Origin: Micropepsaceae bacterium
GTDB lineage: Bacteria; Pseudomonadota; Alphaproteobacteria; Micropepsales; Micropepsaceae
DNA length: 64,000 nucleotides
Assembly: GCA_965247505.1 (NCBI GenBank)
Contig: OZ252020.1
Span: 2,539,719-2,603,718 of the forward strand
Reading direction: 5' to 3'
The position numbers were made by a program, and so were the translations under genes. Positions 6,560 to 29,044 of the stretch are shown here, one piece after another. Every line of letters begins with the position of its first letter. Position 1 is the first letter of the stretch. The notes beneath the pieces are model-generated. The model saw only the letters and a list, made by a program, of their open reading frames with translations. It had not been told where the DNA came from and did not search any database.

Positions 6560-6911
6560 AATATGCATGGTGTTTTATCTGGGTTTAAGACCGCCAGCTA
6601 CCGCCCGCACTGTACCGAACTCGGATTTCTTAGCTCAGGCGCAAGCTGTGCGCTTGGCGCCGAAGCGGACATGGCGCTTCGCTCTGCAGAAATGGATTGC
6701 TCATCAGGAATACCGTCTCAGGCAGTCGACACAATTTTTAGAAGGGCGAGGAAAAGAGTAGTGCGTCGTAAGCCATACCGAGACAGACATAGCCCGCAAT
6801 CAACGCTATCGCGAAGACGAGTCGCGCAAGTGACCCTTTAGTGCCGTTTAATTGCATCGCTAAATACTCCTTGGCGTCGCGAGCCTCAGCTCACAATCAA
6901 ACGCGTCTCGT

Positions 6912-7558: not shown

Positions 7559-8962
7559 TTACAGATAGGGTAGCAGGCGTCCGCCCATGATTACGCCGGT
7601 CCAAGCCGCGAGAATTAGAATAGACGTCAGTTTAGCGCTGATCGCGGCATCGTCGCCCGCCTTTAAACTCCAAAGGTGGCTCGACGTGGTGTAGTAAAGT
7701 GCCGCCACGCCGCCGATGGCGAGAAACGCGACCTTGGGCGCAAATGTCGTATTGTTCACATAGCGATAGGTGTCGGCCAACAATATAAGCATGCCGCTGA
7801 ATACGTTTATCAGAAATCCAAAGAAGGCGAGCGGAAGCACGCGATGGACGGACGAATAGGGTAGGAATTTCCAAAGACCCAAAATACGCAGCGTAATAAA
7901 CAGCACCGAGCCGAATAAAAGCGAATAGCCGAAGAAATGCAGCGTCTGCCAGGGCACGAACCAGGTGATGTTATTGATCGCCGTTTCGATGGCGGGGCTC
8001 CAGAAACCGGTAATGGCATCTTCGGGAAAGACATCCGATGCCGAGCGTATTTCGGGGTGACTAATAAGGCCGCCGCGATGCCCGGTTTCCGCCATGATGC
8101 CTAATGTGATCAGCGCAGAGCCCAAAACGACATAAAGGGCGCGATTGCAAAAACGCTCGACATGCCGGTAGCGCCATAGCTCCATCCAGGCCAAACCGCC
8201 GGTGATGGCCAGGCCGAAAAGCGTCAACAACGCCATGTCACGATGGGCATTAATCGCGCTTGCGGAAAACTCAGGAATCGGCGGCAAGGTCAGCGCCCAC
8301 ATGGATGCCGCGCCCGTGACATAAGTCGGAGCGCCCAGAACAGCGCAGATTGCGAAAATCGCTAGCCCAATTCGTTTTAACGTGTCGTCATCTTTTAGAA
8401 GCGCCGTGATGAAAAGCGCTAGACCAATCACAAACCCAGCTGTTGGGAAGTGATTTAAAATCATATGGACATGCGACCAGCTTTGCGGAGTTCCACCGGA
8501 TTCAAAATCCGGACTAAGTTCGATGTGATTAATTTCCCAACCATTTAGTCCGACCAACGCCATCAAAGCGAGCGTAGCGACCGCCAAGCCCAGAACGACA
8601 AGAAGGATTTGGTTGGAGAGCTGCCCACCGCGCCGAATACGCCAGATCTCATAGGCGCTCGCGACGCCCGTGGCGACCAATATGGCAAGCGCCACCAATC
8701 CCCAATTGTAATGCGTGTCCATCATGGCCTGAGAAATATCAGGGACGGTGGAAAGCGCCGTCATCGAGCCGAGGCCGCTGACATAGGTCGGAATAGCCAA
8801 TAGCCCCAGAACACCAAAAAGTACCAGGCAAATCCGTTTGGTCAGCTCGCTATTGGTGATGAGCCCGGTGAGATAAGCGCCGAGAACAAATACAAGCCCG
8901 ATAGATGGAAATATGCTGACCAGAAGATGAAGATGCGACCAAGATGCCGGAATAATATGCAT
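7559..8962 (-). CDS. Polytopic membrane protein of unknown function with an internal duplication
   Basis: 467 aa with about 12 predicted TM helices. The internal repeat PTYVSGLGSMTALSTVPDISQAMMDTHYNWGLVALAI versus PTYVTGAASMWALTLPPIPEFSASAINAHRDMALLTLFGLAI indicates a tandemly duplicated domain. Confidence 0.55.
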   Translation of the reverse strand: MHIIPASWSHLHLLVSIFPSIGLVFVLGAYLTGLITNSELTKRICLVLFGVLGLLAIPTYVSGLGSMTALSTVPDISQAMMDTHYNWGLVALAILVATGVASAYEIWRIRRGGQLSNQILLVVLGLAVATLALMALVGLNGWEINHIELSPDFESGGTPQSWSHVHMILNHFPTAGFVIGLALFITALLKDDDTLKRIGLAIFAICAVLGAPTYVTGAASMWALTLPPIPEFSASAINAHRDMALLTLFGLAITGGLAWMELWRYRHVERFCNRALYVVLGSALITLGIMAETGHRGGLISHPEIRSASDVFPEDAITGFWSPAIETAINNITWFVPWQTLHFFGYSLLFGSVLFITLRILGLWKFLPYSSVHRVLPLAFFGFLINVFSGMLILLADTYRYVNNTTFAPKVAFLAIGGVAALYYTTSSHLWSLKAGDDAAISAKLTSILILAAWTGVIMGGRLLPYL

Positions 8963-9386
8963 GAAGCCCCCGAGCCCGATTGACGCCGGACCGTCTTATT
9001 GAAGTGCGCAGTGTAGAATATCGGGTCGATATTGGTGCCCGGTCAACGGAATTATTGTCTCGGAGCTGGGAATGTGGGCTTGCGGGAGACAATTGAGCGC
9101 CCGGCGTAATAGGTCATGGATGCTTCCTGCCATATGCAGGCATTGCCCTGGTGAGTTGTGGCGACCGCAAAGTACCGCGGTCTCAGTATAATGGTGGCGG
9201 GAGAAATCAGCGCGGCTTCAGCGCGTTGGGGAAGACGGAATTGTCGGTTCGTGGATCGCGAGCATCCAGCCTCTTGCGATCTTGCTGTTGGCCGGGGCGA
9301 CAAACGCTCAAAGCGGCGTAGAGATGCCCCAGCCCTTCTGCTAGGATAAAGGCGCCCAAGAATTAGTCGGTTAGCGGGGGAACGCT

Positions 9387-9860
9387 ATGGCAATTGATCT
9401 CAACGTGAATGGGGTTCAGCATTCAGTCGATGTAGCGCCGTATACGCCGCTGCTCTGGGTGATCCGGGATCACTTTAAGCTGAAAGGGACCAAATTCAGC
9501 TGCGGCATCGCCCAATGCGGCGCCTGCACGCTGCATATCGATGGTCAACCAGCGCGCTCCTGCAGCGTTCCGGTCTCGGCCGCGGCAGGCAAGGCCGTGA
9601 CCACGATCGAAGGCGTATCAGCCGATGGTTTGAATGCCGTGCAAGAGGCATGGGTCGAGCTCGACGTCCCGCAATGTGGCTACTGCCAATCGGGTCAAAT
9701 CATGAGCGCGGTCGCATTGCTTCGCAGACACCCAAATCCGAGTGATGCGGATATCGACGCCGGGATGACCAATGCATGCCGCTGCGCAACCTATTACCGC
9801 ATCCGCCAGGCAATCCATTTGGCTGCCTCAAAGATTTCCGCGGAAGGGGGGACGCTGTGA
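9387..9860 (+). CDS. (2Fe-2S)-binding small subunit of a molybdenum hydroxylase (IorA / aldehyde oxidoreductase small-subunit type)
   Basis: Two [2Fe-2S] cysteine clusters, [12 protein letters not shown] and the [11 protein letters not shown] motif. 157 aa. Confidence 0.85.
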
Positions 9861-12220
9861 TGAACAAGGATGCTCTCCCAAGCTCTGATCTTTCGGGCTC
9901 CGATCTTTCCCGGCGCGATATGCTTTCCGCGGCAGCGGCCGGCGCGCTCGTTATCGGTTTCCGGGTCCCGCGCGCGAAGGCGCAAATCATAGATCCGGAA
10001 GGCGCCGCATGGGCCAATGAGCCCGAATTCGACGAAGTGAATGCCTGGGTGGTCGTCGCGCCCGACAATAGCGTGACCATCCGTATCGCGCAGACCGAGA
10101 TCGGCCAGGGCGTATGGACCTCCAATGCCATGATGGTGGCCGAAGAGCTGCAATGCGACTGGAGCAAGGTCAGGCCCGAATATGCCTCCATCAATCGAGA
10201 CGCGCGCGAAATGGCGCCGGAATGGACGCTCAACGTGATGGGCGATGGCGCGCAAGACCCTAATGGCGGCGGCGAACCAGAGTTCCGCGACCGCAACCCG
10301 ACCGGCACAAATGGAATCCCGGACAGCCTTTATCGGCGCATGCGGACAAACGCCGCCGCATCCGTGCGCGATGGCCGTTACTATCTTCAACTGGCCGGCG
10401 CCGAAGCGCGCGAGCGACTATTATTAGCCGCCGCCAGGGTCTGGCGCGTTCCCGTCGAAGAGGTGAGTTCGGCCAACAGCCTGATCAGCCATGGGCCCAC
10501 TGGGCGCAGCATTACCTATGGACAGGTTGCATCGATTGCCGCGCAAATACCCCATCCGAATCCCGAAGGCATCCGCATCAAGCCGCCTTCGGGATGGACA
10601 TTGATGGGGACCGAGCGGAAAAACCTCGATGTTCCGTTCAAAATCTCCGGCAAGACCGTTTACGGCATCGATGTTGACCTGCCGGGCATGAAATGGGCGG
10701 CAGTGCGGTCCTGCCCGGTCTATGGCGGCACCGTGCGCAGTTATGATTTCGAGCAGATTCGAAACGAGCCGGGAATCATCTCGGCGACCGATTTCCCGAT
10801 CCCCGATCCGTCATTGATCCGCGGCCGCTTGTTTAGCGGGGGCGTCGCCGTTATCGCCGATAGCTGGTACCAGGCCAACACGGCGATCGATAAAATGCCG
10901 ATCGAGTGGGATATCCCGCCGGAAAACGCCGCATGGAATACCGCCAATATGCGCGCGGCGCTGATGGAATCATTGGACGAACCCGGCACTGTTCAAGCCA
11001 ACACCGGCGACTTCGATAGCGCCTTTGCGGGCGGTGCGAAAATAGTCGAAGCAGTTTACACAACGCCCTATCTCCCGCGCGCCCGGATGGAGCCCGGCAA
11101 CGCGACCGTGCTTGTCACCGACGACAGGGTCGATATCTGGGTCGGCGATCAGAGCCCGCAGGAGACGCGCCATTCGGCATCCCGTATTACAGGCATCCCG
11201 GAAGAGAACGTCCATCTTCATTTGTGCCATCTTGGCGGCGGCTATGGCCGCAATGGCAACGGCCCACAAGCCGAACAGACGATTCTTTTGGCCAACCAAA
11301 ACCGCGGCACGCCGATCCATATGCTTTGGACCCGCGAGGAAGACTTCGTCAGCACCACTTATCGTTCCATGGGCGTCGCGCGGCTGCGCGCGGCTCTCGA
11401 TGACGATGGCTGGCCGATCGCTTGGGAAGTCAAAACAGCCATGGACGAAAAGGCGCCCGGCTCCACCGCGGGCTTCGACATCGCCCCGCGCTACTTTGTG
11501 CCCAATTACCGTTTCTCGACCCACTCTGTGGCGTTCCACATTCCCGTAGGCACGCGGCGCGGCGTCGGCGCCCCTGCCATGAATTTTTATCGCGAGAGCT
11601 TCATAAACGAACTGGCCCACGCTGCCGGGATGGACCCGTATCAGTACCGCCGCGAGCTGATTTCGCGCGGCGACCTCCCCTACAAGGCCGACATGATCAA
11701 AGCGCTGGACATGGCAGCCGAAATGTCGGGCTGGGGCACGCCTCTGCCTGAAGGTACCGCGCGCGCCATCGCCTTCGAAGAACGCGGGGCCGAGGCCGAC
11801 GGCCATGCAACGTTCAGCGCCCAAGTCCATACCGTCTCGCTCAGTCGCGAGGGCGAAGTAAGCCTTGTTTGCGTCGATATCGCGCATGACGAAGGCTTCG
11901 GTCTGGTCAACCCGCTCAGCGTGAGAAAACAAATCGAAGGCCAGATTCCGTGGTTCTACAACGACGTGATGTATCAAGAATGTAACGTTAGCGAGGGCCG
12001 CATCGTCGAAAACAATTTCGATAGATTTCCCTTGGGCCGTATCGGCGACAATCCGCCCGAGATCAACATTTCCTTTTTCAAGTCGGAGCATTGGCTCGAC
12101 GGCATGGGGCATGATCGCGGCGTCTCGCTTCAATCCACTATTGCTGACGCCATCTTTCAGATCACCGGAAGGCGTTACCGCGACCTGCCCTTCCGCCATC
12201 ACGATTTGAGTTGGGGGTGA
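9860..12220 (+). CDS. Molybdopterin-binding large subunit of the molybdenum hydroxylase (IorB-like), with a Tat signal peptide
   Basis: The ATG at 9860 overlaps the stop of the upstream gene (ATGA). The N-terminus contains RRDMLSAAAAGALVIGF, a twin-arginine signal. The roughly 786 aa show similarity to the aldehyde oxidase/xanthine dehydrogenase Mo-binding domain. Confidence 0.85.
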   Translation: MNKDALPSSDLSGSDLSRRDMLSAAAAGALVIGFRVPRAKAQIIDPEGAAWANEPEFDEVNAWVVVAPDNSVTIRIAQTEIGQGVWTSNAMMVAEELQCDWSKVRPEYASINRDAREMAPEWTLNVMGDGAQDPNGGGEPEFRDRNPTGTNGIPDSLYRRMRTNAAASVRDGRYYLQLAGAEARERLLLAAARVWRVPVEEVSSANSLISHGPTGRSITYGQVASIAAQIPHPNPEGIRIKPPSGWTLMGTERKNLDVPFKISGKTVYGIDVDLPGMKWAAVRSCPVYGGTVRSYDFEQIRNEPGIISATDFPIPDPSLIRGRLFSGGVAVIADSWYQANTAIDKMPIEWDIPPENAAWNTANMRAALMESLDEPGTVQANTGDFDSAFAGGAKIVEAVYTTPYLPRARMEPGNATVLVTDDRVDIWVGDQSPQETRHSASRITGIPEENVHLHLCHLGGGYGRNGNGPQAEQTILLANQNRGTPIHMLWTREEDFVSTTYRSMGVARLRAALDDDGWPIAWEVKTAMDEKAPGSTAGFDIAPRYFVPNYRFSTHSVAFHIPVGTRRGVGAPAMNFYRESFINELAHAAGMDPYQYRRELISRGDLPYKADMIKALDMAAEMSGWGTPLPEGTARAIAFEERGAEADGHATFSAQVHTVSLSREGEVSLVCVDIAHDEGFGLVNPLSVRKQIEGQIPWFYNDVMYQECNVSEGRIVENNFDRFPLGRIGDNPPEINISFFKSEHWLDGMGHDRGVSLQSTIADAIFQITGRRYRDLPFRHHDLSWG

Positions 12221-12261
12221 AGCTGCTTTCAGGCAAACGCGATTTTCACGGAGGCTCTACG

Positions 12262-13152
12262 ATGCGCAGACGCTCGATTGCGGCTCTCATGGTTGGAATC
12301 TGTGTATGCACACTCGCCTGGCCGGTTCACGCCCAGGAGCGCGCGCTCCTCGGCGACGCTGCGCTACCCGATTTTTCCGGCCTGTGGGGACATACGCTCC
12401 TTGAAGTCGAACCGCCCTTTTCGGGCGCCGGGCCGGTGACAAATTCGAGCCAGATCCCGGGTCTTAACGCTGGGGATCACACCAATCCGATCCTCAGGCC
12501 CTGGGCGGCGGAGATCGTCAAGCGCAATGCCGAACTCGCGCTGAGCGGCCTGCCCCGTCCAACGCTGCACAATATGTGCGATCTGGAAGGCGTGCCCCTA
12601 ATTGTCACCGTAAAGGAAGTAAAGTTCCTGCAGACTCCCGGGCAAGTCACGATGCTCTATTATTCAAATCACCAAGTGCGTTTCGTCGCCATGAATGTTG
12701 CGCACACAGTGAATCCTGAGCCCACATGGTTCGGAGAGTCCGTCGGCCATTACGAAGGCAATGACACGCTGGTGATCGACACGATCGGCATAAAGAGGAC
12801 AGACGATACCGAGGTCGATTGGTTCGGCACGCCCCACACGGACGCCCTGCATGTCGTCGAGCGCTATCGCTTGGTCGACAGCGAGGAAGTGGTCAGAGCG
12901 CCGGAACCAGACCGGCGGCGCGAAGGCAGGGTCGGCACCTATTACCGCCCGCTACCCGGAGGCAAGACGCTGGGAGTGCAATACAATGTGGAGGACCAGG
13001 GCGCTTTCACGAAGCCGTGGGGGGCAGTCGTGCACAATGAAATAACGCCGGACAGAGACAACTCGCTGGAGCATGTCTGCGCCGAGAATAATCGCTTCTT
13101 CTTCCGCGAGGAATTGTTCCCGATGACGAGTGCCGGCGATCCGGACTTCTGA
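12262..13152 (+). CDS. Secreted protein, member of the WYGESxGHYEGD paralog family. It sits directly downstream of the Mo-oxidoreductase genes.
   Basis: Signal peptide MRRRSIAALMVGICVCTLAWPVHAQ. The family motifs WFGESVGHYEGNDTLVIDTIG and FGTPHTDALHVVERY are present. The gap to the upstream gene is only 42 bp. Confidence 0.6.
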   Translation: MRRRSIAALMVGICVCTLAWPVHAQERALLGDAALPDFSGLWGHTLLEVEPPFSGAGPVTNSSQIPGLNAGDHTNPILRPWAAEIVKRNAELALSGLPRPTLHNMCDLEGVPLIVTVKEVKFLQTPGQVTMLYYSNHQVRFVAMNVAHTVNPEPTWFGESVGHYEGNDTLVIDTIGIKRTDDTEVDWFGTPHTDALHVVERYRLVDSEEVVRAPEPDRRREGRVGTYYRPLPGGKTLGVQYNVEDQGAFTKPWGAVVHNEITPDRDNSLEHVCAENNRFFFREELFPMTSAGDPDF

Positions 13153-13275
13153 GGGACGCACCATGTTATATAGACTAGATGTGCTCCAGGTCGGGGCTGA
13201 CGAGGAGATAGATTTCGACGATTAGCGCAGCGCACCGAAAAACCGAAAATGCAGAAACAACATGCGGGGGTCAGT

Positions 13276-14049
13276 ATGAGCCAAGAGATAGCGGTTGTTG
13301 TCATACACGGCATGGGATCTCAGGAAGCGAATTTCTCGCATCCCCTCCGGGATGAGATAAACAATAGACTCGGCAGCCAGAAGGCGAGTCAGGTTAGTTG
13401 GGGAGAAATTTTTTGTGCTGACATCTTAGCGCCAAGACAAGCAGCGTATTTTCAGCGGGCCAAATCGAGGAATGATCTTGATTTCGTTCGGCTACGAAAA
13501 TTCATGTTGGAGGCATTCGGAGATGCATCTGCCTATAGAAAGACAGGTGATCGCAGCAATACCGCTTACCGGGACATTCACGAGAGAGTGACCGCGAGCA
13601 TAATGGGGCTTGATGATCCGGCTAAGCCTAAGAAGCCTCTAGTCATAATGGCGCATTCTCTCGGCGGACACATCATGTCAAATTACATCTATGACATGCA
13701 GAAGCGACAACCGAGGCAACCAGGAATTAGTGCCTTTCGGTATATGAAGACGGTGGCAGGTCTCATTACATTCGGCTGCAATATCCCGTTTTTCACATTC
13801 GCCTTTGAGAAGGACGATATTCAACCAATCAAATTCCCTGGCTCTGCGTTGTCTCAGGAGAACAAAGCTCGGGCGCGTTGGCTGAATTTTTACGACCCGG
13901 ATGATGTTCTTGGTTATCCGCTGAAGCCGATCAATAAAGCATATCGAGCAGTCGTAAATAGAGATATACCAATCAATGTCGGCGGGATCTTATCTAGCTG
14001 GAATCCACTGTCCCATAACAAATATTGGACAGATAACGACTTTAACTAA
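13276..14049 (+). CDS. Alpha/beta-fold hydrolase (lipase/esterase-like)
   Basis: The IHGMGSQ motif and the GXSXG nucleophile elbow AHSLGGH are present. Local GC is lower than the surroundings. The start could be 13249 or 13276. Confidence 0.5.
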   Translation: MSQEIAVVVIHGMGSQEANFSHPLRDEINNRLGSQKASQVSWGEIFCADILAPRQAAYFQRAKSRNDLDFVRLRKFMLEAFGDASAYRKTGDRSNTAYRDIHERVTASIMGLDDPAKPKKPLVIMAHSLGGHIMSNYIYDMQKRQPRQPGISAFRYMKTVAGLITFGCNIPFFTFAFEKDDIQPIKFPGSALSQENKARARWLNFYDPDDVLGYPLKPINKAYRAVVNRDIPINVGGILSSWNPLSHNKYWTDNDFN

Positions 14050-14104
14050 GCCGGTTGCGAGATTCATAAGCAGCTTATTGTCATAGCCAACGCCCGCTTT
14101 GGGT

Positions 14105-15769
14105 CCAGGCTGTGTGAAAACGCGTTGGCTGGTATGATTCTTCTGTGATTTGGTGGAGGGGTCGATGAAGCGCTTTGTAGTTGGCGATGATCGCAGTTAA
14201 AGCACTCTTTTTCCTGAGCGGCTGGATGAGTATTTGGGCGATGACAACCCGGTTCGGGCGATTGATGTCTTGGTTGATGAGCTTGATCTGGGGGAATTGG
14301 GCTTTAGCGGGGTTGAGCCGGAGGCGACGGGAAGGCCTGCCTACCATCCGGCGACGCTGCTGAAGATCTACGTCTATGGATACCTCAATCGGGTCCAATC
14401 GAGCCGTCGCCTAGAGCGGGAGTGCCAGCGCAATCTCGAGCTCCTATGGCTGACCGGCCGCCTGATGCCGGATTTCAAAACTATCGCCGATTTCCGCAAG
14501 GACAACGGCGGGGCCATCCGCAAGGTCTGCCGTGCGTTCGTAGTGTTGTGCCGTCGCCTTGAGCTGTTCAGTGAGGCGAGCGTTGCGATCGATGGCAGCA
14601 AGTTCAAAGCGGTCAATGCGTGGGATCGGAACTTCACGCAGGCCAAGATGCAGCGGCGGTTGAAGCAGATCGACGAGAGCATTGCGCGCTACCTCTCGCA
14701 GCTTGATAGCGCCGATCGCCAGGGCGAAGCGGTGCCGGAGGCCAAGATCACGCGGCTCAACGAGAAGATTGCGATGCTGCGCCAAGAGATACAGCGCCTG
14801 AATGCACTGAACGTTCAGATGATGCAGAGCGAGGACAAGCAGATCTCCCTGACAGATCCCGATGCGCGCTCGATGGCCACGAGCGGCCGGGGCAGCGGGA
14901 TGGTCGGTTATAATGTGCAAAATTCCGTGGACACGACGCATCATCTGATCGTTTCCCATGAGGTGACCAACAAAGGCTCTGATCGGGGTCAGTTGTCGGG
15001 CGCTGCCGCGCAGGCGCGCACGGCCATTGGTTCTGAAACCATCGAGGCTGTTGCCGATCGCGGCTATTACGCCGGCGAAGAGATCCTGGCCTGCGAGGAG
15101 GCCGGCATAACGGTCTATCTCCCGAAGCCCCTGACCTCAGGGGCCAAAGCCGCAGGGCGTTTCGGCAAGCAGGACTTCGTCTATGTCGCCGAAGACGATG
15201 TCTATCTTTGTCCCAACGGTGAGCAGCTCACCTATCGCTATACCAACGAAGAGGCCGGTAAGATGCTGCGCCGCTATTGGACGGCTGCCTGTCAGGCGTG
15301 TGCGCTGAAAAGCAAGTGCACGACGGCTCGGGAGCGCCGGATCTCACGTTGGGAACACGAAGCCGTCCTTGAGAGAGTTCAGGCGCGGCTCGATCGAAAT
15401 CCGGACAAGATGCGCGTGCGCCGCCAGACCGTGGAGCATCCCTTCGGTACGATAAAGTCGTGGATGGGAGCGACGCACTTCCAGATGAAAACGCTCGAGC
15501 ACGTCGGCACCGAAATGGCGCTGCACGTTCTGGCCTACAACATGAAACGCGTGATGAAGATTCTTGGCGTTGGCGGATTGATAGAGGCGATCCACGCATG
15601 AGACGGGCTCAGGGGGCCCCATAACCCAGCATTCTTCGCATCAAGGAGCCGTTAGGCATCTCCGCGGACCGATTTTACTGAATTGGACGCGTCGGGTCGC
15701 ATAATCCCGCCCCGACCTCCGCTTACGCTACCAACCACCAGACCCGACCACCTTTTCACACAGCCTGGG
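14105..15769 (+). mobile_element. IS1182-family insertion sequence
   Basis: Terminal inverted repeats CCAGGCTGTGTGAAAA (14105-14120) and TTTTCACACAGCCTGG (15754-15769) flank a single transposase gene. The N-terminal signature MKRFVVGDDR.STLFPERLDEYLGDDNPVRAIDVLVDELDL and the C-terminal HPFGTIK motif are those of the IS1182 family. Confidence 0.7.
14165..15601 (+). pseudogene. IS1182-family transposase interrupted by an in-frame TAA at codon 12 (14198-14200)
   Basis: The ATG at 14165 reads MKRFVVGDDRS-TAA-STLFPERLDEYLGDDNPVRAID. The stop replaces the conserved Gln (CAA) of the family N-terminus. The remaining 467 codons are intact (the track ORF restarts at TTG 14234). Confidence 0.65.
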
Positions 15770-15775
15770 TCAGGA

Positions 15776-15838
15776 GCGGACATCCATGTTGCAGTGCAAT
15801 AAGTCTGCTAAGTGCCACAAGCGGACATTGGTGTGAGC
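15776..15838. repeat. 60-bp imperfect inverted repeat, left copy. Its partner is at 17787-17845.
   Basis: The reverse complement of 15776-15838 matches 17787-17845 (ATGTCCGCTT.TGGCACT.AGCAGAC.TATTGCACTGCAACATGGATGTCCGCTC) with about 3 mismatches in 58 bp. It contains the palindrome TTGCACTGCAA and two GGATGTCCGC direct repeats. Confidence 0.7.
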
Positions 15839-15920
15839 AGCCGCCGATTTGGCTCAAGATTTATAAGAGCAATGCTATTTAAAGCGGTGGCCCACAAGTC
15901 AGTTTCGCTCATTTTAGGCG

Positions 15921-16718
15921 CTAAAAATCATGCGCCGAGGCTGTAGGAATATCGAATACTCCGCCTGAAGGGTCCTTGTTGTTCTCTGCACACGCAGACT
16001 CGTGAAATGGCGCCGCGGGCCAATAGGTCGCGCGCGCTGACCAGGGTGTGGTGAACAGTTCAGGGTCTTCAATAGTGAGTTCTATTGCAATCGCGCTGCG
16101 GTCGGGCGCAATCGTATATCGTTCGACAATGTGCAAATTCTCGCTTCGTGGCGTGCCAAAGCGGTCTACGAGTGCGACGTCATTCTGGCCGATCGTATCG
16201 ATAACCAAACTATCAGAGCCTTCGTAATGGCCGGTAGAATGGCCGTACCATGTCCGGGGAGAATTATTGGCATGCCCTTCGTTGAGATAGACATGCCGCA
16301 CTTGATTGTCGCGCTCGTAAATGATCGTCACCTTGTCGGGCGACTGAAGAAATTGCAGTGGATCGTTCATGTTGACCACTAACGGCACGCCGGGCGGCCA
16401 GCACAAGACCCAAGCGGGCTGACTAATGTTTCCCGAACGGCCGATTGCCGCATGCGCCGTAACTGCCGCCAGGGCCTCTGGTCCAAGTATGCGGTTGTCC
16501 AAATCCGCGATCCAGAAGGGGCCCGAATCCGCCGCGCGCATCATCGGCCCCGGCCCGCTTTCGGGAGCTTGGAACGATCGCCCTTCGGCGCTATCTGAAC
16601 GCGTCCAATAGCCGGTGAAATTCGGGATTTCAGTTTCTTGTGCGGCGATACTCGCCGGAGAAATCAAGACGAACAGTCCGGACAGTATTAGGAGATGGCG
16701 GCAAATCGATCTGCGCAT
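15921..16718 (-). CDS. Secreted protein, member of the WYGESxGHYEGD paralog family
   Basis: Signal peptide MRRSICRHLLILSGLFVLISPASIAAQ. Family motifs WYGHSTGHYEGSDSLVIDTIG and FGTPRSENLHIVERY are present. Confidence 0.6.
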   Translation of the reverse strand: MRRSICRHLLILSGLFVLISPASIAAQETEIPNFTGYWTRSDSAEGRSFQAPESGPGPMMRAADSGPFWIADLDNRILGPEALAAVTAHAAIGRSGNISQPAWVLCWPPGVPLVVNMNDPLQFLQSPDKVTIIYERDNQVRHVYLNEGHANNSPRTWYGHSTGHYEGSDSLVIDTIGQNDVALVDRFGTPRSENLHIVERYTIAPDRSAIAIELTIEDPELFTTPWSARATYWPAAPFHESACAENNKDPSGGVFDIPTASAHDF

Positions 16719-16846
16719 TGCGATGCCCTCGGAGCCGCCCAGTTAAGCAAAACCATATTATCGCGGCTCAGCGTAGCGCAGTTTGGCCTGACGGCTCCTT
16801 TAGTACCAGCGGTTTAGGGTGCGACATGTCCGCTTTACCTTTGCGG
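16671..16846. repeat. 176-bp direct repeat, copy 1. Copy 2 is at 17575-17750 and is nearly identical.
   Basis: Two mismatches over 176 bp. Copy 1 covers the start codon, the signal-peptide-coding 5' end and the upstream region of the family gene 15921-16718. Confidence 0.85.
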
Positions 16847-17160
16847 TCTCAATGGATCAACGCAACACTAGCGGCAGGCCTCTCTGCCGGGGGTTAGAAC
16901 CTCAAAGTCTTTCAGGACCGTTCTTGAGCCGTCCGGCCACTTTTCTCGGATGCGAGAGCGAATAGACCGAAAACACAGCACTCTTCAGAAAGCGTTATCA
17001 GAGCAGGCGTTTGACGTTCCCATTGGAGCTGGGCTGGCAGTGATTCCACGGCCCAGGCTTCTCGTGCAAGGTGAACCACGGACTATGCCTTTGGCTCGTA
17101 AGCACAAACTCAGACTCCTCCGTTTGCGCCAAGGTGTTGCGTCGACCGGTTGAGGCGGCA
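16842..17160. repeat. Roughly 320-bp inverted repeat, copy A. Copy B is at 22579-22888 in reverse complement.
   Basis: Identical 67-aa and 63-aa spurious ORFs appear in both copies (16950-17153 + equals 22576-22779 -). Nucleotide identity is near 100 percent across the core. The two copies flank a 5.4-kb gene block. Confidence 0.85.
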
Positions 17161-17221
17161 CTTTGAGAGCGGACATCGGTGCTGCACCAATTAGGACACT
17201 TAGCTAGAGAAATTAGGACGC

Positions 17222-17536
17222 TCACTCAAGATTCCGCTGGCCTTTTCGCAGGCCACAATTGAAACATTGTTTGTTGAAAGCGGTAACCCCTCCTAGGAAC
17301 CCCCATTTAAAAGAAAAGGGTTCGCCACATTTGGGGCATAGGAATGCAGAGTGCCACAGGAAGGGAACAAAAAGTGCGACAACGTCCCATGGAGCGAAAT
17401 AGGCCCAATCAATATTTTGAAAAAAGAATGGGCCAGCGAACCACGTGGTCACAAAAGAGACGAAAGTGCCCAACAGGAGGGCGCGCCTAAAATCTAGGTC
17501 GCGCCACGCTCGCTGGTATAGGACTTCTTTCGTCAA
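17222..17536 (-). CDS. Small membrane protein with a C-terminal zinc-ribbon (CPKCG...CFNCG)
   Basis: 104 aa with two hydrophobic helices followed by two CxxC pairs. The segment is AT-rich. Confidence 0.4.
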   Translation of the reverse strand: MTKEVLYQRAWRDLDFRRALLLGTFVSFVTTWFAGPFFFQNIDWAYFAPWDVVALFVPFLWHSAFLCPKCGEPFSFKWGFLGGVTAFNKQCFNCGLRKGQRNLE

Positions 17537-17574
17537 AACTGCCCGCCCTCAATTACCCTGAACCGAACAGTCCG

Positions 17575-17750
17575 GACAGTATTAGGAGATGGCGGCAAAT
17601 CGATCTGCGCATTGCGATACCCTCGGAGCCGCCCAGTTAAGCAAAACCATATTATCGCGGCTCAGCGTAGCGCAGTTTGGCCTGACGGCTCCTTTAGTAC
17701 CAGCGGTCTAGGGTGCGACATGTCCGCTTTACCTTTGCGACCTCAGGTGA
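17575..17750. repeat. 176-bp direct repeat, copy 2, carrying a truncated remnant of the family gene 5' end
   Basis: On the minus strand it encodes MRRSICRHLLILSGLFGSG-stop, i.e. only the signal peptide of the 15921-16718 paralog. Confidence 0.8.
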
Positions 17751-17786
17751 TCGATGCACCGCAGCATGGATGTCCGCTTATGGCAC

Positions 17787-17845
17787 TAAGCAGACATATT
17801 GCACTGCAACATGGATGTCTGCTCTCGGGGGCAAAGTGGACATTC
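17787..17845. repeat. 60-bp imperfect inverted repeat, right copy. Its partner is at 15776-15838.
   Basis: See the left copy. Together they bracket the 15839-17786 segment. Confidence 0.7.
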
Positions 17846-17981
17846 GGCTCGGTCCTAGAAAAGAGGCCGGTAAAGCGTTTTCGGCATGAGGCGATGTTCA
17901 TCGACTCTGGGGCGTGATGAATTAGCAGTGAATTCGCAATGACACTCGGCGGTTCTGGCGCCTGATGGAGCCAGGTGCGAT

Positions 17982-20153: not shown

Positions 20154-20219
20154 TCCTCCTGTCTGAATCCGGACATATGGCTTTTGCCCCGGAGGGCACC
20201 TGTTATTCGTAGATGCCAA

Positions 20220-20588
20220 TTATTCGTGGATGTAAGTATTCCCATCGGCGCTGGTGATCGTCGTGAAGCTTCCGCCCGGGCGGCCGTCTCTTAAGGGGTG
20301 CATGTTCACACTAACTGCGTCACCATCCGCGAATGTGTTTAAGTTCATTCCCCCGCGGAGCATGGTCGGAATGTTCACCATCTCGATCCAATATTGCACG
20401 GTCTCGCCGTTTTCCTCTTCGACATCGACATAGAGGAAGGCGTGCGGATTGCTGAACACATATCCGGACACGGTCCCGTTGATGGTCACATCACTAGTGT
20501 TGTCGAACATCGCGTGGCTGTGGTGCGCTAATGCTGCCGGCGCGACCAGCAAAGGCCAGGTGAGTATTACGAAATAGATGCCTCTCAT
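20220..20588 (-). CDS. Small secreted protein whose predicted mature N-terminus is HHSHAMFD (unknown family). It lies immediately upstream of a paralog-family gene.
   Basis: Signal peptide MRGIYFVILTWPLLVAPAALA, then HHSHAMFDNTSDVTINGTVSGYVFSNPHAFLYVDV... Total length is 122 aa. It is paralogous to 25838-26219. Confidence 0.55.
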   Translation of the reverse strand: MRGIYFVILTWPLLVAPAALAHHSHAMFDNTSDVTINGTVSGYVFSNPHAFLYVDVEEENGETVQYWIEMVNIPTMLRGGMNLNTFADGDAVSVNMHPLRDGRPGGSFTTITSADGNTYIHE

Positions 20589-22437: not shown

Positions 22438-22578
22438 AAAGCTAAACTTTCATGAGCGTTCCGGTACCGGGCCGTATTCTCGACATCCATAGTCCGAGCA
22501 CTGAATGCTACGCTTGGGGAGGGACCTGCTTCAAGCAGCGCTGCGGTGGCCCAATGTCCGCTCTTGGCTGCCGCCTCA

Positions 22579-22888
22579 ACCGGTCGACGCAACACCTTGG
22601 CGCAAACGGAGGAGTCTGAGTTTGTGCTTACGAGCCAAAGGCATAGTCCGTGGTTCACCTTGCACGAGAAGCCTGGGCCGTGGAATCACTGCCAGCCCAG
22701 CTCCAATGGGAACGTCAAACGCCTGCTCTGATAACGCTTTCTGAAGAGTGCTGTGTTTTCGATCTATTCGCTCTCGCATCCGAGAAAAGTGGCCGGACGG
22801 CTCAAGAACGGTCCTGAAAGACTTTGAGGTTCTAACCCCCGGCAGAGAGGCCTGCCGCTAGTGTTGCGTTGATGCATTGAGACCGCAG
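22579..22888. repeat. Roughly 320-bp inverted repeat, copy B (partner 16842-17160)
   Basis: Reverse-complement identity to copy A. Confidence 0.85.
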
Positions 22889-23056
22889 CACTCAGCGAAC
22901 ATCCCTAGTCATCTGGGTAACGTCTGCGTCCGGCAGGCAGTGCGGATATGGGGACTAAAATCCGGGGAATTTATTGGTTTTCGATGTGGGTTGCGCGCTC
23001 CGCCTATGCGCCCCTATAGCTCACTGTGTTACTGATAGGCTTAATTTGGAGCCGCC

Positions 23057-25837: not shown

Positions 25838-26219
25838 CTAATCGTACTCTTCCGCCAACGCTCTTCCGTCCGGAAGCGTAATCGAGTCAAGCGTCCCGGC
25901 ATAATCGCCATCATGCGTTGGAAAAATGGATACCGAAATCTCATCGCCTGCGACAACGGTATCGCTTCTCCAACCCCTGCGAAACAGGCGGGACGGATTA
26001 CTCATTTCGATCACATATTCAACCGACTCACCATTTTCATTGGCAGCCATTACGCGCAGCCAGCTATGGGGGTTAGTCCACTCGAAACTCGATACGGTGC
26101 CCTCTACCGCTACCGTCCTGGTGAAGTCAAACATCGCATGCGAATGATGTCCAAATGCGGGCACCGCCAAGAATACAAATCCTATGCTAGCTAGGCTTAA
26201 GGTCTTCGTGTTCATCATT
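25838..26219 (-). CDS. Small secreted protein whose predicted mature N-terminus is HHSHAMFD. It is paralogous to 20220-20588 and lies immediately upstream of two family genes.
   Basis: The ATGATG at 26214-26219 follows a GGGAGG RBS. The signal peptide MMNTKTLSLASIGFVFLAVPAFG is followed by HHSHAMFDFTRTVAVEGTVSSFEWTNPHSW... Confidence 0.55.
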
Positions 26220-26445
26220 ATCCTCCCGGCAGAGCTAATAAAAACCCCACAAATGGAACCAACCTGTCTCATAATATACGCAGATTAGGGGTTCCACAAT
26301 CGCGGCTTAACAAGTGTGATTCCAGCCGGCCTATTGTCGGGAAACAAGGCTTCGCCATTGGCGATTTTGGCCGCCGGATAGCTGCTCGGGAAAACAGCCG
26401 GTCCTGCTTACCTAAGGCTATCCATCCGATCTTACCGATGGGAAA

Positions 26446-26522
26446 TGGTACAGTTGGGTGGGTTTGAACCGCCGACCTCCGGATCCACAATCCGGCGCTC
26501 TAACCAACTGAGCTACAACTGC
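26446..26522 (-). tRNA. tRNA-His (anticodon GTG), alphaproteobacterial type with no encoded G-1 and an A73 discriminator
   Basis: The reverse complement gives GCAGTTG-TA-GCTC-AGTTGGTTA-GAGC-G-CCGGA-TTGTGGA-TCCGG-AGGTC-GGCGG-TTCAAAC-CCACC-CAACTGT-A-CCA, a cloverleaf with a GTG anticodon. The T-stem has one C-A mismatch. The upstream nucleotide is T, not G. Confidence 0.8.
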
Positions 26523-26676: not shown

Positions 26677-27594
26677 ATGGCGGAAGATCTCGCAAAAATA
26701 GCAGCAAATTTGGAGCGAAGTGGCCAGCCGCTCTGGTTGTGGGAGCCAAAGCGGCGGCGAATCATATGGGCCAATGGCGCGGGCCGCGAATTCTGGGGCT
26801 CGCAGTCACTATTCGATCTCGCCGCTCGCTCTTTTGCCGCTCAAGGCCCGGAAGCCCGCACCATGGCGATGACCGGCTCCAATATCGAGACCAGTTTGAG
26901 CCTCCCCGGCGGGCGGGTCTCGGCCTTGCTCGATATCGCCGAGATCGAATTGCCCGAATTAGGTGAAGCCCGGCTGGTTCGCCTCTCGCGCATTCAGCCG
27001 GCGCCCGCCAAGCCTTCGGGCGCGCATGCGAGCGATCTTTTTCAAACCGCCCCGATCGGACTTTGTCTTATGGATCCGCAAGGGCGGCCGCTCGATGAAA
27101 ATCGTGCTTGGGGCAAGCTTACGGGCGGTCCGCGGCGCGCGCTTGGCGCTTTGGCCGGCGAAGAGGTGGCGGCTCGCTTTCTTCTTAGTTGCATCACAAA
27201 TGGCCGTGCGGAATTCAGTATCCAAATTGAATCCAGGCGGCTTCGCCTTTTTGGAAAACGGCTCAAGCAGGCCGACGGTTCGATGCCGCTCATCTATGTT
27301 CGCGGCGAAGACGTAACGGTGGGACACGCGCTGGGAATGCTGTTGACGCAATTGGCACAAAACGCGTCTGCTGGAGATGAGGATTCTGCAATGACTGATC
27401 CGGCGCAATTGCCGGCGTCCGGTCAAGTGTTGCCCCTTGCAAAAACAGCGGGTAACGGCGAAGCAAAATCCGATTTTGTCTCGCTGCTCAGCCATGAAAT
27501 GCGAAACCCCCTTTATGAGATTATTGGATTTTCCGAGATCATGCAGCAGGGGCATTTCGGCCCCTTAGGCAATGCGCGTTACGAGGCCTATTCG
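26677..27594 (+). pseudogene. PAS-domain sensor histidine kinase, 5' portion, interrupted by an IS256-family insertion
   Basis: It ends in the HisKA H-box SLLSHEMRNPLYEIIGFSEIM...NARYEAYSR. The reading frame continues seamlessly at 29045 once the IS and one TSD copy are removed. Confidence 0.7.
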
Positions 27595-29044
27595 AGGGGA
27601 TGTCCCGGTCGATGTTGAAAAGTTGAGGTAGGTGTCGCTCTCCTGGAGCCGTTAGGCTCCGGGTGCTGCAAACCCAAAAGGGAGAACGACACCATGGGAA
27701 ATAATATCCGTAGTTCCAGCCGCCCGAAAGCCCTTGCCCCCTCGATTCCTATGCCGCCGCTGGCGGACGCGATGGACGCAGTCCATCTCAGCGTGGATCG
27801 GTTTTGTCTTCTGGCCGGGGTCTAGGCCTTGGCCGAGATGATGGAGGAGGACGCCACGACCGTGTGCGGGGCCCGACATCGCCGCCATGGGGACCGTCGA
27901 GGTTATCGCTGGGGCAGGACACATAGCGAGATCGGCTACCACGGCGGCAAAGTGAAGGTGGCCCGGCCACGGGTTCGTGACCGGGCGGGCAAAGAGGTGA
28001 GCTTGGAGAGTTGGCAGGCGCTACGCGATGCCAACCTGCTACTCGAGTGGGCGCTCAACCTGATGGTGCTGAACGTGTCGATCCGCAAGTACCACCGCGC
28101 GGTCCGTCTGCCCGAGGGCGACCTGGCGAAAGCGCGTGGCGACGGCACCTCGAAGTCGGCCGTTTCCCGGCGCTTTGTGGCGCTGTCACGCAAGAAGATG
28201 AAGGCCTGGCTCGCCTCGGATCTCTCGGAACTCGACCTGCTAGTCATCCAGATCGACGGTCTGCATGTCGGCGACCATGTCCTGATGGCGGCGATCGGCG
28301 TCGATGGCAACGGCGACAAGCATGTCCTGGCCGTGGTCGAGGGGGCGACGGAGAACACGGTCGTCGTCCAGGCCTTGATCGACAATCTCCTCGCCAGGGG
28401 GCTCGATCCGACACTGCCGCGGCTGTTCATCGTCGATGGCGCGAAGGCACTCAGCAAAGCGATCCGAAACACCTTCGGTGTGGCCGCCGCCATCCAGCGC
28501 TGCCAGGTCCACAAGGGCCGTAACATCATCGGGCGCCTGCCCCAACATTTGCACGCGAGCGTCAAGAAGGCGCTCCGTCAGGCCTGGGACCAGGACGACG
28601 CAAACAAGGCCGAGCGGCTCTTGCGCAACCTGGTCCGGCGTCTGGAGCATGAGGAACCGGGCGTCTCGGGCAGCATCCTGGAGGGGCTGGAGGAGATCCT
28701 CACCGTCATCCGCCTCGGCCTACCGCACGAACTCCGGCGCTCGCTCGCCTGCACTAACATCGTCGAGAACGCGCTCGGCACGGTGCGCCAGGTCACCCGC
28801 AACGTCAAACGCTGGAGACACGCCGAGATGGCGCTCAGATGGACCGCCGCCGGCCTGCTGGAGGCCCAGAAAACCTTCCGTCGCCTCAAGGCCTATCGCC
28901 AGCTGCCCATCCTCCGAAATGCTCTCCAGGAACACTTGAGAAAGGCTCAGGCCGACAGTGCCATTGAAACCATCATGAAGGCAGCATAGCATCATCAACC
29001 AGCGACGCCTGCCCCACGAATTTCAACAGAGATAGGGACATCGC
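27595..29044 (+). mobile_element. IS256-family insertion sequence with an 8-bp target site duplication CCTATTCG
   Basis: Direct repeats CCTATTCG at 27587-27594 and 29045-29052. The imperfect terminal IRs are TGTCCCGGTCGATGTTGAAAAG... and ...CTTTCAACAGAGATAGGGACA. The transposase is of the mutator/IS256 type (GYRWGRTHSEIGYHGGKVKVARPRVRD). Confidence 0.7.
27694..28989 (+). pseudogene. IS256-family transposase with an in-frame TAG at 27823-27825
   Basis: The ATG at 27694 reads MGNNIRSS...LSVDRFCLLAGV-TAG-ALAEMMEEDATTVCGAR. The stop falls within the conserved N-terminal region of the family, and the downstream 386 codons are intact. Confidence 0.6.

Follow-up and report, generated by a model that had tools for sequence, protein, structure and literature searches.

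The part of the window (the whole 64-kb stretch of DNA analysed here) between 14 and 23 kb contains an IS1182-family insertion sequence (IS), two inverted copies of a 319-bp repeat, a 195-bp direct repeat, and a series of short palindromes (Table 1). A 28-bp palindromic repeat that forms a hairpin, here called the module, has the motif GAGCGGACAT as its right arm and takes the form ATGTCCGCT-(10-11 nt loop)-AGCGGACAT; units are 28-29 bp, and the 9-bp arms extend to 11 bp with a TT/AA extension. There are a few loop types, which are TTGCCCCCGAG-like, TnTGGCACnA-like, or TTGGGTCRAA-like. Modules are either single or arranged in arrays with a 45-bp period, in which a spacer (CCATGYTGCRGTGCAAT) with a small palindrome lies between units, and they are found both singly and arrayed without any mobile element. 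The arrays are REP/BIME-like, and the earlier proposal that the motif belongs to a REP-like palindromic repeat holds. Every module lies between called genes, both in the window and in loci L001-L007, L089, L090, and L095; within the window all intact or split modules are at 14-23 kb, with none in the remaining ~55 kb.

Table 1. Coordinates of the modules, mobile elements, and repeats at 14-23 kb of the window
Feature	Position	Strand	Details
Left arm and half loop of module X, cut by IS1182	14090..14105	+	ACGCCCGCT TTGGGTC
IS1182-family IS	14106..15767	+	CAGGCTGTGTGAAAA...TTTTCACACAGCCTG; NF033551, 434.8 bits (cut-off 270)
Target duplication, AGG, and right arm of module cut by IS1182	15768..15783	+	GGTC, AGG, AGCGGACAT
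Array spacer and type-2 module	15784..15828	-	Spacer CCATGTTGCAGTGCAAT (small palindrome); module AAGTCTGCT-AAGTGCCACA-AGCGGACAT; layout as 17770-17843, opposite orientation
195-bp direct repeat, copy 1	16670..16864	+	95% identical to 17564-17758
Left arm and half loop of type-1 module split by copy A	16826..16841	+	ATGTCCGCT TTACCTT
319-bp MITE, copy A	16842..17160	-	99% identical to copy B; 3-bp duplication CTT on both sides
Half loop and right arm of module split by copy A	17161..17176	+	CTTTGAG AGCGGACAT
195-bp direct repeat, copy 2	17564..17758	+	Ends in module left arm (17720-17735) and IS30-like stump
IS30-family end remnant (19 nt) and TGCA microhomology	17736..17758	+	Remnant TGCGACCTCAGGTGATCGA, 17736-17754
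Module array	17759..17843	+	Spacer remnant; type-2 module 17770-17797; spacer 17798-17814 (TTGCACTGCAA); type-1 module 17815-17843; second arm of the inverted repeat
Left arm and half loop of type-2 module split by copy B	22554..22568	+	ATGTCCGCT CTTGGC
319-bp MITE, copy B	22569..22887	+	2-bp duplication GC
Half loop and right arm of module split by copy B	22888..22902	+	GCACTC AGCGAACAT
Clustered AGCGGACAT/ATGTCCGCT matches (seven)	15775, 15820, 16826, 17168, 17720, 17770, 22554		

The original prediction hinged on the motif being more frequent than background, and across the 64-kb window it is enriched, with nine exact matches to AGCGGACAT/ATGTCCGCT where 0.52 are expected (0/100 shuffles reach nine); complete modules (ATGTCYRCT-N9-12-AGYRGACAT) number two, against 0.00 expected. 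Seven of the exact matches lie where they had been placed beforehand (Table 1). The motif sits immediately beyond the 319-bp unit, and a short way in from the end of the 195-bp unit. Some of the seven do not count as independent, since they are contained in or bordered by the 195-bp direct repeat and the two 319-bp copies. The other two are unrelated, the one at 6664 belonging to another small hairpin that follows a MarR gene and the one at 47886 lying inside a gene. A further occurrence claimed at 20166 is unsupported; this site (ATCCGGACAT) has one mismatch and no partner arm, and we dismiss it as a background match, such one-mismatch matches numbering 31 in the window against 17 expected.

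A repeat search identified 15774-15828 and 17770-17824 as reverse complements over 55 nt (51/55, 93% identity), the first arm being composed of the spacer and type-2 module at 15784-15828 together with 15774-15783. The imperfect inverted repeat of ~60 bp described earlier is thus present, with four mismatches rather than about three, but its second interval, given as 17787-17845, was off by ~17-20 nt; only 34 nt align in those exact coordinates (32/34). The palindrome TTGCA(G/C)TGCAA lies in each copy, as had been reported (15789 and 17799; two matches versus 0.04 expected). Folding, proposed as a check, gave a divided answer, with DNA at 17765-17850 folding well (z = -3.75) and the first 60-nt unit alone folding no better than shuffles (z = -0.55). 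The two nested repeats, initially sized at 176 bp and 320 bp, are real but measure 195 bp (95% identity) and 319 bp (99%, inverted).

The 319-bp repeat has terminal inverted repeats matching at 20/27 positions, a longest stop-free frame of 93 codons, and no transposase. Its ends (TGCSGYCTCAA..., inward of the motif) share ~65% identity with each end of IS30-clade elements of 1.2 kb, and we found no autonomous IS nearer to it than ~65%; judged from these features, it is a MITE related to IS30-family IS elements. Copy B is present in the window and in L003, L005, and L006, and absent from L001, L002, L004, and L007. At the empty sites the flanking blastn blocks abut with a 2-bp overlap, and the L002 empty allele reads ATGTCCGCT-CTTGGCACTT-AGCGGACAT, a full perfect hairpin (ATGTCCGCTCTTGGCACTTAGCGGACAT). 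The duplications at five independent MITE sites are CTT, GC, CCT, GC, and AAG, each of them 4 nt from the arm or arms. We considered a composite transposon formed by the two inverted MITE copies around a 5.4-kb four-gene cluster, and rejected it, since this cluster is also present in sister genomes that lack copy B.

A complete 1,241-bp IS30-like IS is present in L003, L005, and L006, in the loop of a third module, at the position where the window has only a 19-nt end. Its transposase matches NF033563 (288 bits, cut-off 80), and the 1,241-bp IS of L002 and L003 has the transposase, terminal repeats, duplications, and target symmetry of the IS30 family; the copies in these two loci are without a matching duplication and have chimeric flanks. 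We then asked how general the target is among 73 unique IS30-clade elements from Alpha-, Beta-, and Gammaproteobacteria, Acidobacteriota, and others. Both arms (GTCCGCT and AGCGGAC) lie within 20 nt of 19 of the 73 elements, versus 0.16% of random sites, and at least one arm is present for 45 of the 73, versus 4.8% of random sites. In 18 of the 19 two-arm elements each arm is equally far from its element end (6/6 or 7/7), the exception being the rearranged L003 copy (6/7). A perfect duplication is present in 12 of the 19, of 2 bp where the distances are 6/6 and of 3 bp where they are 7/7. The geometry between the arms is 4 nt, the duplication, and another 4 nt. Palindromic flanks (at least 7/9) are found in 40 of 78 elements and in 3 of 78 controls. 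The IS30-like elements and the MITE would cut 4 nt inside each arm, and therefore leave a 2-bp duplication in a 10-nt loop and a 3-bp duplication in an 11-nt loop. This is a testable geometric rule, with a constant 4-nt offset and a duplication length set by loop length, and it points to a symmetric transposase complex recognising both arms; by analogy with IS30 hot spots, we predict that this would be a transposase multimer.

The IS1182-family element in the window has ends that match 15/15, and its transposase ORF (start 14165) carries a Gln12-to-stop change (TAA at codon 12) in comparison with the intact 478-aa P0001, which inactivates the window copy. The sister locus L095 has an intact module (ACGCCCGCT-TTGGGTCGAA-AGCCGACAT) at the same position, and the homology between 8276-14105 of the window and 1-5829 of L095 stops exactly at the module half cut by IS1182. 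All five IS1182 copies (one each in the window, L003, and L090, and two in L089) lie between module arms, and although their interiors are 99% identical, the arm sequences differ. GGTC is present on both sides of two complete copies in L089 and L090; of a third intact copy, only the left end is in the locus. Relatives with 84-86% protein identity have duplications of GGTC (L099) or GACC (L098). In the window and L003 copies the two arms come from different modules, such that the flanks are chimeric. The suggestion that the motif was the IS1182 target is borne out by the empty-site allele in L095 and by the arms flanking 5/5 copies, and the recommended comparison of insertion sites elsewhere agrees, with copies between arms and GGTC or GACC duplications in relatives.

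In sister genomes only, an IS110-family IS is found in CCCCC-type module loops. The sister-locus element has DEDD_Tnp_IS110 and Transposase_20 domains on record, and its 3' non-coding end contains ATGTCC and ATGTCCGCT. A bridge-RNA reading of this 3' region gained no support: an Rfam search of it gave no match and its fold is no better than shuffles (z = -0.95). A site-specific recombination target, one of the roles proposed for the motif, is loosely appropriate in that this DEDD-type element uses the loop in related genomes, but the junctions in the window are of the DDE type, because they have terminal inverted repeats and 2-4 bp target duplications.

Copy 1 of the 195-bp repeat contains the 5' end of a 265-aa gene with its upstream region, and runs on through the left arm of a module into the MITE, of which it includes the first ~23 nt; in copy 2 the gene fragment, as read from the sequence, is cut off after ~19 codons. 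The segment at 17736-17758 is a deletion scar and a rearrangement joint, and the joint at 17736-17769 connects DNA lying ~520 kb apart in a sister genome, in keeping with the original prediction that the motif is found at rearrangement junctions. The accompanying idea that the motif seeded the nested repeats does not stand, as these consist of the MITE and of a segmental duplication terminating in a module plus an IS30-type end.

We consider it very likely that these REP-like hairpins are hot spots for multiple transposons, with a loop centre preferred by at least three unrelated elements in this lineage, and that this explains the presence of the motif at boundaries and joints. What is observed directly is the anatomy, the alleles with and without insertions, the duplications, and the statistics across the clade. 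The IS30-family IS and its 319-bp MITE relative insert at the loop centre, 4 nt inside each arm; the IS1182-family IS enters at the loop GGTC and leaves a 4-bp duplication; and the IS110-family IS occupies CCCCC-type loops in sister genomes. Each insertion splits the hairpin into halves that bracket the element, which accounts for the motif at "segment boundaries." Subsequent deletion or recombination, either between IS copies or alongside them, would then have left the mismatched flanks and the 19-nt IS30 stump, and would have joined loci that are ~520 kb apart in a sister genome; extra rearrangements have to be assumed for the chimeric flanks of the IS30-like copies in L003 and L002 and of the IS1182 copies in the window and L003. 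The order of these rearrangement events, and any cellular role of the hairpins, we infer.

A rival reading makes the motif the outer end of the IS elements themselves or of a ~351-bp MITE; true terminal inverted repeats would then begin with ATGTCCGCT, and each element would carry the arms along. The 42-43-nt inverted repeats, arms included, around both 319-bp copies and the similar 15-nt flanks on all IS1182 copies can be read in this way, but we regard it as highly improbable: the empty alleles retain both arms as one intact hairpin, the target duplications are inside the arms, arm and loop sequences vary among elements that are 99% identical internally, and modules exist singly and in arrays without any element. 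The initial view of the motif as the terminus of a small non-autonomous element fails similarly, since the MITE ends inside the motif and, in the allele without it, the two arms persist as one undisturbed hairpin. The prospect that the motif recurs by chance, or through copying of a few large repeats, is close to negligible. Four of the seven local matches are indeed in or beside the duplicated 195-bp and 319-bp units, but nine matches are present where 0.52 are expected, the arms border insertions that are independent of one another, in unrelated genomic surroundings as well as in other genera, and exact 22-base versions of the hairpin are found in 63 viral contigs, versus ~0.01 expected (an estimate from the collection size).

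A further explanation is that the hairpins are att-like sites of site-specific recombination or cassette exchange, with crossover in the loop, such that transposons parasitise the site and the window boundaries are its products; we think this unlikely, and find it equally doubtful that the hairpin is a boundary site (att-like or a linker) for gene-cassette exchange across Proteobacteria, with crossovers within the loop and the IS30, IS1182, and IS110 elements as parasites. Genes or gene clusters at 14-23 kb are each bracketed by modules, and homology between the window and L001, L002, and L004 switches exactly at the edge of the module at 17770-17797. In lambdoid prophages the same hairpins bound variable cargo; homology is lost within the loop of one of them and at the opening base of the other, and one base of the loop changes together with the cargo. 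Use of the loop by an IS110-family recombinase in sister genomes also fits. Against this, no recombinase is linked to the cassettes, every resolvable boundary in the window is accounted for by an IS, by the MITE, or by what is left of an IS, with terminal inverted repeats and duplications, and the prophage pattern could also reflect short-homology recombination or template switching at identical stems. For cassette exchange the closest parallel is integron attC, likewise an imperfect palindrome at the boundaries of promoterless or variable cassettes, where hybrid sites are expected after in-site crossover; the resemblance goes no further, as here there is no IntI, there are no R/L core motifs, and there is no evidence of a dedicated recombinase. 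Cassette exchange and transposon hot spots are not mutually exclusive.

The hot-spot interpretation has precedents. REP sequences are targets of IS3, IS110, IS4, IS256, and IS5 family elements (Tobes & Pareja 2006, PMC1525189), including IS1397 and ISKpn1 in enterobacterial REP loops, and ISPpu9/ISPpu10, ISPa11, ISRm19, and ISRm22 (PMC1525189). As with those REP/BIME sequences, the modules are short extragenic palindromes, partly arrayed, and split in halves by several unrelated IS families. Unlike in that survey, the users here are IS30 (with its MITE) and IS1182, neither of which is among its five families (PMC1525189). The hairpin also differs in being without GTAG, which is absent from the module units, and without the typical CGTC tag, and it looks clumped in the DNA read. 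About 25 intact, split, or degenerate modules are present in ~125 kb read of the species, clumped in IS-rich DNA, and the repeat may be moderately abundant and clumped in such DNA, unlike classical high-copy REP. No Y1_Tnp domain (RAYT) was found among ~30 window ORFs scanned, and Rfam over the window region returned nothing at gathering or E-value thresholds. We also set aside a tRNA or attachment-site role, as the sole tRNA, at 26446-26522, is far from the motif. REP sequences are usually lineage-specific, whereas near-identical hairpins are found here across proteobacterial classes. Unexpectedly, the same hairpins bracket swappable cargo in Enterobacterales prophages and plasmids (DarT with a macro-domain protein, reverse transcriptase with a PRTase, and others), and in E. 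coli-type prophages the cargo they delimit is variable and defence-like.

Among alphaproteobacterial repeats, the CGTC-tagged REPs have an unpaired CGTC/TGTC head, an 8-9 bp stem starting with AT, a 4-5 nt loop, and a CCA tail, as described in the text of Di Nocera et al. (2013, PMC3733652). The modules resemble them in being alphaproteobacterial palindromes with the TGTC tag variant, with CCA after many units, and with no dedicated transposase known (PMC3733652). We do not place the modules in this family, since their TGTC is base-paired, their stems do not begin with AT, and their loops, of 6-11 nt according to how much of the stem extension is counted, exceed 4-5 nt. Br-REP1 and Br-REP2 of Bradyrhizobium also differ from the module in sequence.

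IS30 targets nearly palindromic hot spots, entering at their two central base pairs; it makes 2-bp duplications and generates deletions and inversions (PMC9333248). The system here shares with the IS30 hot-spot targeting of Olasz and co-workers (PMC9333248) the IS30-family transposase, the near-palindromic target, the central insertion, the 2-bp duplication, and the rearranged flanks; it differs in having a module with 9-bp arms and a variable loop, duplications of 2 or 3 bp by loop length, a 4-nt offset, and a 319-bp non-autonomous user. IS1272, of the IS1182 family, targets hairpins, reportedly without sequence specificity, deleting part of the hairpin and making no duplication (Furi et al. 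2016, PMC4923244). Like IS1272 and TnSha1 (PMC4923244), the element described here is an IS1182-family element that chooses hairpin or palindromic targets, but it inserts at a loop GGTC with a 4-bp duplication and the arms are retained. Hairpin and REP targeting by IS elements is thus already known, and it is these elements that are new to such behaviour; a literature search on the hairpin sequence and on IS30-family hairpin targeting yielded nothing specific.

One short hairpin accounts for the positions of a MITE, three IS families, and several rearrangement joints, and the nested repeats become readable as a history. The list of transposons that target REP-like hairpins gains the IS30 family, along with a non-autonomous derivative, and an IS1182 relative that leaves a clean 4-bp duplication. 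Were cassette exchange to prove true, the site would be kept because it mediates cassette flux. Should the prophage pattern reflect a shared mechanism, junctions of the flexible genome would in general be marked by this hairpin. As hot spots, the hairpins concentrate insertions outside genes and supply portable homology for large rearrangements.

The motif AGCGGACAT or its complement is found nine times in the 64-kb window where 0.52 matches are expected, and its recurrence at the places originally predicted holds, with seven copies between 15.7 and 22.6 kb; the copy reported at 20166 is a one-mismatch background match, and those at 6664 and 47886 are unrelated to what follows. The motif belongs to a palindromic module, ATGTCCGCT-(loop)-AGCGGACAT, as one of its two arms, and the complete-module pattern has two matches against 0.00 expected; the modules are strung into an array with a period of 45 bp by a 17-nt spacer that itself holds a small palindrome. 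The '60-bp inverted repeat' of the original prediction is two pieces of this array in opposite orientation: 15774-15828 matches the reverse complement of 17770-17824 at 51 of 55 nt, although the second interval had been placed about 17-20 nt away, and the palindrome TTGCA(G/C)TGCAA is present in both copies, as described. The larger repeats, put at 176 and 320 bp, are also real but measure 195 bp (direct, 95% identity) and 319 bp (inverted, 99%). Folded as single-stranded DNA, the array (17765-17850) beats all shuffles (z = -3.75) but its first unit alone does not stand out (z = -0.55), and Rfam has no match across the module region. The exact motif at 6664 is part of another small hairpin, GAAGCG-gacatgg-CGCTTC (window 6640-6690), directly 3' of a MarR-family gene, and this hairpin is no module.

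Several long metagenome-assembled contigs encode an identical copy of the DUF6152 protein of 20220-20588; these contigs are 99.4-99.9% identical to the window DNA and differ in mobile-element content; further copies of the array lie at non-homologous places on these sister contigs. Copy B of the 319-bp repeat is absent from four sister loci (L001, L002, L004, and L007), where the alignments to its two sides meet and overlap by 2 bp. Without the insertion the site is a perfect module, cccaATGTCCGCT-CTTGGCACTT-AGCGGACATccc, whose loop is interrupted at its centre in the window by the 319-bp unit, with GC on either side, so the repeat is a mobile insertion, and the motif, which had been proposed as an element terminus, is its target and not its end. 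The unit has terminal inverted repeats matching at 20/27 positions (TGCCGCCTCAACCGGTCGACGCAACAC / TGCGGTCTCAATGCATCAACGCAACAC) and carries no transposase. Over ~50-130 bp on the left and ~200 bp on the right it is ~65% identical to both ends of 1.2-kb elements that occur in the sister contigs and many other genomes, and whose 391-aa protein is an IS30-family transposase (NF033563, 288 bits); on this likeness we assign it as a MITE derived from an IS30-clade element, with the exact parent not found among the sister contigs and other genomes compared. Five independent MITE sites were identified, with duplications of 2 or 3 bp.

We searched with the transposase in one genome per species and recovered 79 loci (59-79% identity; the source species is not among them) from Alpha-, Beta-, and Gammaproteobacteria, Acidobacteriota, and others, giving 73 unique elements with ends set by the conserved terminal repeat. 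Both arms (GTCCGCT / AGCGGAC, ≤1 mismatch, within 20 nt of the element ends) are present in 19 of the 73, compared with 0.16% of random sites, and at least one arm in 45 of the 73, compared with 4.8%; the arm-flanked elements include those of Variovorax, Comamonas, Thiobacillus, Halioglobus, a Woeseiaceae MAG, and Bradyrhizobium. The arm-to-end distance is equal on both sides (6/6 or 7/7) in 18/19, the lone unequal case (6/7) being the rearranged copy in sister locus L003, and 12/19 have a perfect duplication, of 2 bp with 6/6 and 3 bp with 7/7. The cuts thus fall 4 nt inside each arm, with loop length (10 or 11 nt) fixing the length of the duplication. Judged by these flanks, the targeting is common to the IS30 clade as a whole, and a transposase multimer would read both arms. 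IS30 itself inserts at the central 2 bp of nearly palindromic hot spots with 2-bp duplications, uses a copy-out-paste-in mechanism, and frequently generates deletions and inversions (PMC9333248); this established hot-spot behavior fits the insertions seen here. IS30-like relatives in Gammaproteobacteria and Acidobacteriota MAGs (L079, L082, L085, and L086) are centred in quite different perfect palindromes, such as TTTCCGATAACCCG|CGGGTTATCGGAA in Acidobacteriota. Dyad-centre insertion is conserved among IS30-like relatives while the recognized sequence changes.

The modules are also targets of a second family. At 14106-15767 lies an element whose transposase is of the IS1182 family (434.8 bits). 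Its gene has TAA at codon 12 (14165-14200), where intact copies (478 aa) have CAA/Gln; the element is inactivated by this Gln12-to-stop change and is probably non-autonomous. The sister contigs hold three more intact copies (two in L089 and one in L090), and the copy in L003/L005/L006 is broken by an IS3-family insertion. Module arms flank all five, as ...(A)TGTCCGCT-TTG-GGTC[IS]GGTC-AGG-AGCGGACAT; the arms vary among copies (AACGTCTGCT, AAGTCCGCT, ATGTCCGCT, ACGCCCGCT, ATGTCTCCT) and the IS interiors are 99% identical. The decisive allele is in L095, which has an intact module, ACGCCCGCT-TTGGGTCGAA-AGCCGACAT, 3' of the same hydrolase gene, and its homology to the window ends exactly at the IS1182 end; the suggestion that the motif was the IS1182 target is thus borne out by this allele and by the arms around every copy. 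IS1182 relatives (84-86% identity, one from a Reyranella MAG) have 4-bp GGTC or GACC duplications in palindromic contexts. IS1272, of the same family, likewise targets hairpins, but it deletes part of its target and makes no duplication (PMC4923244).

In L003/L005/L006 a complete 1,241-bp IS30-like element occupies the loop of a third module in the array. The window has lost this IS and the left half of the module through a deletion between two TGCA tetranucleotides, keeping 19 nt of the IS end (17736-17754), and it is because of this stump that the 195-bp repeat ends weakly like the MITE. Window segments 8276-14105 and 15772-17767 match a single locus, L095, on a 4.4-Mb sister contig, and 17770-26000 matches L002, ~520 kb away; the joint is the stump (17736-17769), and IS30-like copies lie at both distant places in inverted orientation. 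This separation implies that closely related strains differ by a large, IS-associated rearrangement, and it agrees with the prediction that the motif marks rearrangement joints, which we attribute to recombination or deletion by elements landing in modules. The IS1182 copies of the window and L003 agree in their right flank and differ in their left. In the window IS1182 takes the place of 2.5 kb of L095 that holds a MITE-bearing module, a 182-aa gene, and the IS110. No duplication flanks the IS30-like copies of L003 and L002, whose half-loops are of different types.

IS110-family elements lie within CCCCC-type loops in L089, L003, L002, and L095. Their ~290-nt 3' non-coding end holds ATGTCC and the target arm sequence ATGTCCGCT, and L002 has a 97-nt tandem duplication within this region. 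The 3' end could be a guide RNA, for which Rfam and folding gave no support. Elsewhere in the window, an IS256-family transposase gene (Transposase_mut, 27829-28989) splits a histidine kinase (26677-29658) into HisKA (26677-27618) and HATPase_c (29089-29658) parts, which form a single 507-aa gene in L002. Hairpin modules and IS elements often flank the several paralogous DUF6152 genes, which have different neighbors (20220-20588 and 25838-26272, and in L001, L089, and L090).

Coordinates and composition of modules, insertions, and cargo-bracketing hairpins
Feature	Location	Sequence or content
Module	17770-17797	ATGTCCGCT-TATGGCACTA-AGCAGACAT
Module	17815-17843	ATGTCTGCT-CTCGGGGGCAA-AGTGGACAT
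Third module with IS30-like element	L003/L005/L006	ATGTCCGCT-TAGTGC[IS]AAGGTAA-AGCGGACAT
MITE copy A	16842-17160	duplication CTT
MITE copy B	22569-22887	duplication GC
MITE	L004 13588	duplication CCT
MITE	L095 5873	duplication GC
MITE	L090 11805	duplication AAG
195-bp repeat, both copies, part 1		5' end and upstream region of 265-aa gene
195-bp repeat, both copies, part 2		left arm of CCCCC/TTACCTT-type module
195-bp repeat, both copies, part 3		start of IS30-type terminal repeat
IS110 in module	sister loci	ATGTCCGCT-TTATCCCGCC|GAAAGATGGGG...CGATTAGAGA|AGCGGACAT
IS110-family element	L089 11655-13090; L002 13912-15440; L095 6940-8376
Cargo-bracketing hairpins	L093 4298-6028; L092 3004-4486 (Enterobacterales); L100-L162 (viral contigs)
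Cargo		DarT and macro-domain protein
Cargo		reverse transcriptase and PRTase-CE
Cargo		DUF4365
Cargo		HAD and NUDIX
Cargo		proteins of unknown family

REPs are documented targets of IS3, IS110, IS4, IS256, and IS5 family elements (PMC1525189), a list without IS30 and IS1182, both of which the modules host. The modules lack the GTAG of REPs. They have TGTC and a CCA tail in common with alphaproteobacterial CGTC-REPs, but these have a head that is unpaired, stems beginning with AT, and loops of 4-5 nt (PMC3733652), and the modules have none of the three. No Y1 transposase was seen among the ~30 window ORFs scanned, and within the DNA sampled the modules cluster in stretches rich in IS elements. 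We file them as REP/BIME-like, in keeping with the REP-like repeat first proposed, and not as members of a named family.

Enterobacterales accessory DNA carries the TGGCAC-loop hairpin in nearly identical form, with a Leclercia plasmid version (aACGTCCGCTTATGGCACTAAGCGGACAT) and others on Pantoea megaplasmids, an E. coli plasmid, and a lambdoid prophage; it is present, mostly in single copy, in 187 of 5,426 E. coli genomes. Exact matches to the 22-base pattern GTCCGCTTNTGGCACNAAGCGGAC number 63 in viral contigs, against ~0.01 expected as estimated from collection size. Among 34 lambdoid loci, the right flank does not vary, and there are six unrelated left flanks. When five cargo types were aligned pairwise, homology always restarted at the first base of the TGGCAC-loop hairpin, one loop base of which co-varies with cargo, and on the opposite side alignments ended inside the loop of a second same-arm hairpin, GTCCGCT-TTGAGCG|.... 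In Enterobacterales prophages and plasmids, cassettes of variable cargo lie between the first of these hairpins (GTCCGCTTnTGGCACnAAGCGGAC) and a partner whose loop is ATGAGCG/TTGAGCG. Hairpin-cargo-hairpin units also occur as tandem arrays, there is no transposase among the cargo examined, and we found no description of hairpin-bounded variable cargo in the literature. The pattern may come from short-homology recombination or template switching at identical stems, from repeated IS traffic, or from a dedicated exchange mechanism. Part of the interest of these modules lies in the clean geometric rule and in a hairpin that spans proteobacterial classes.
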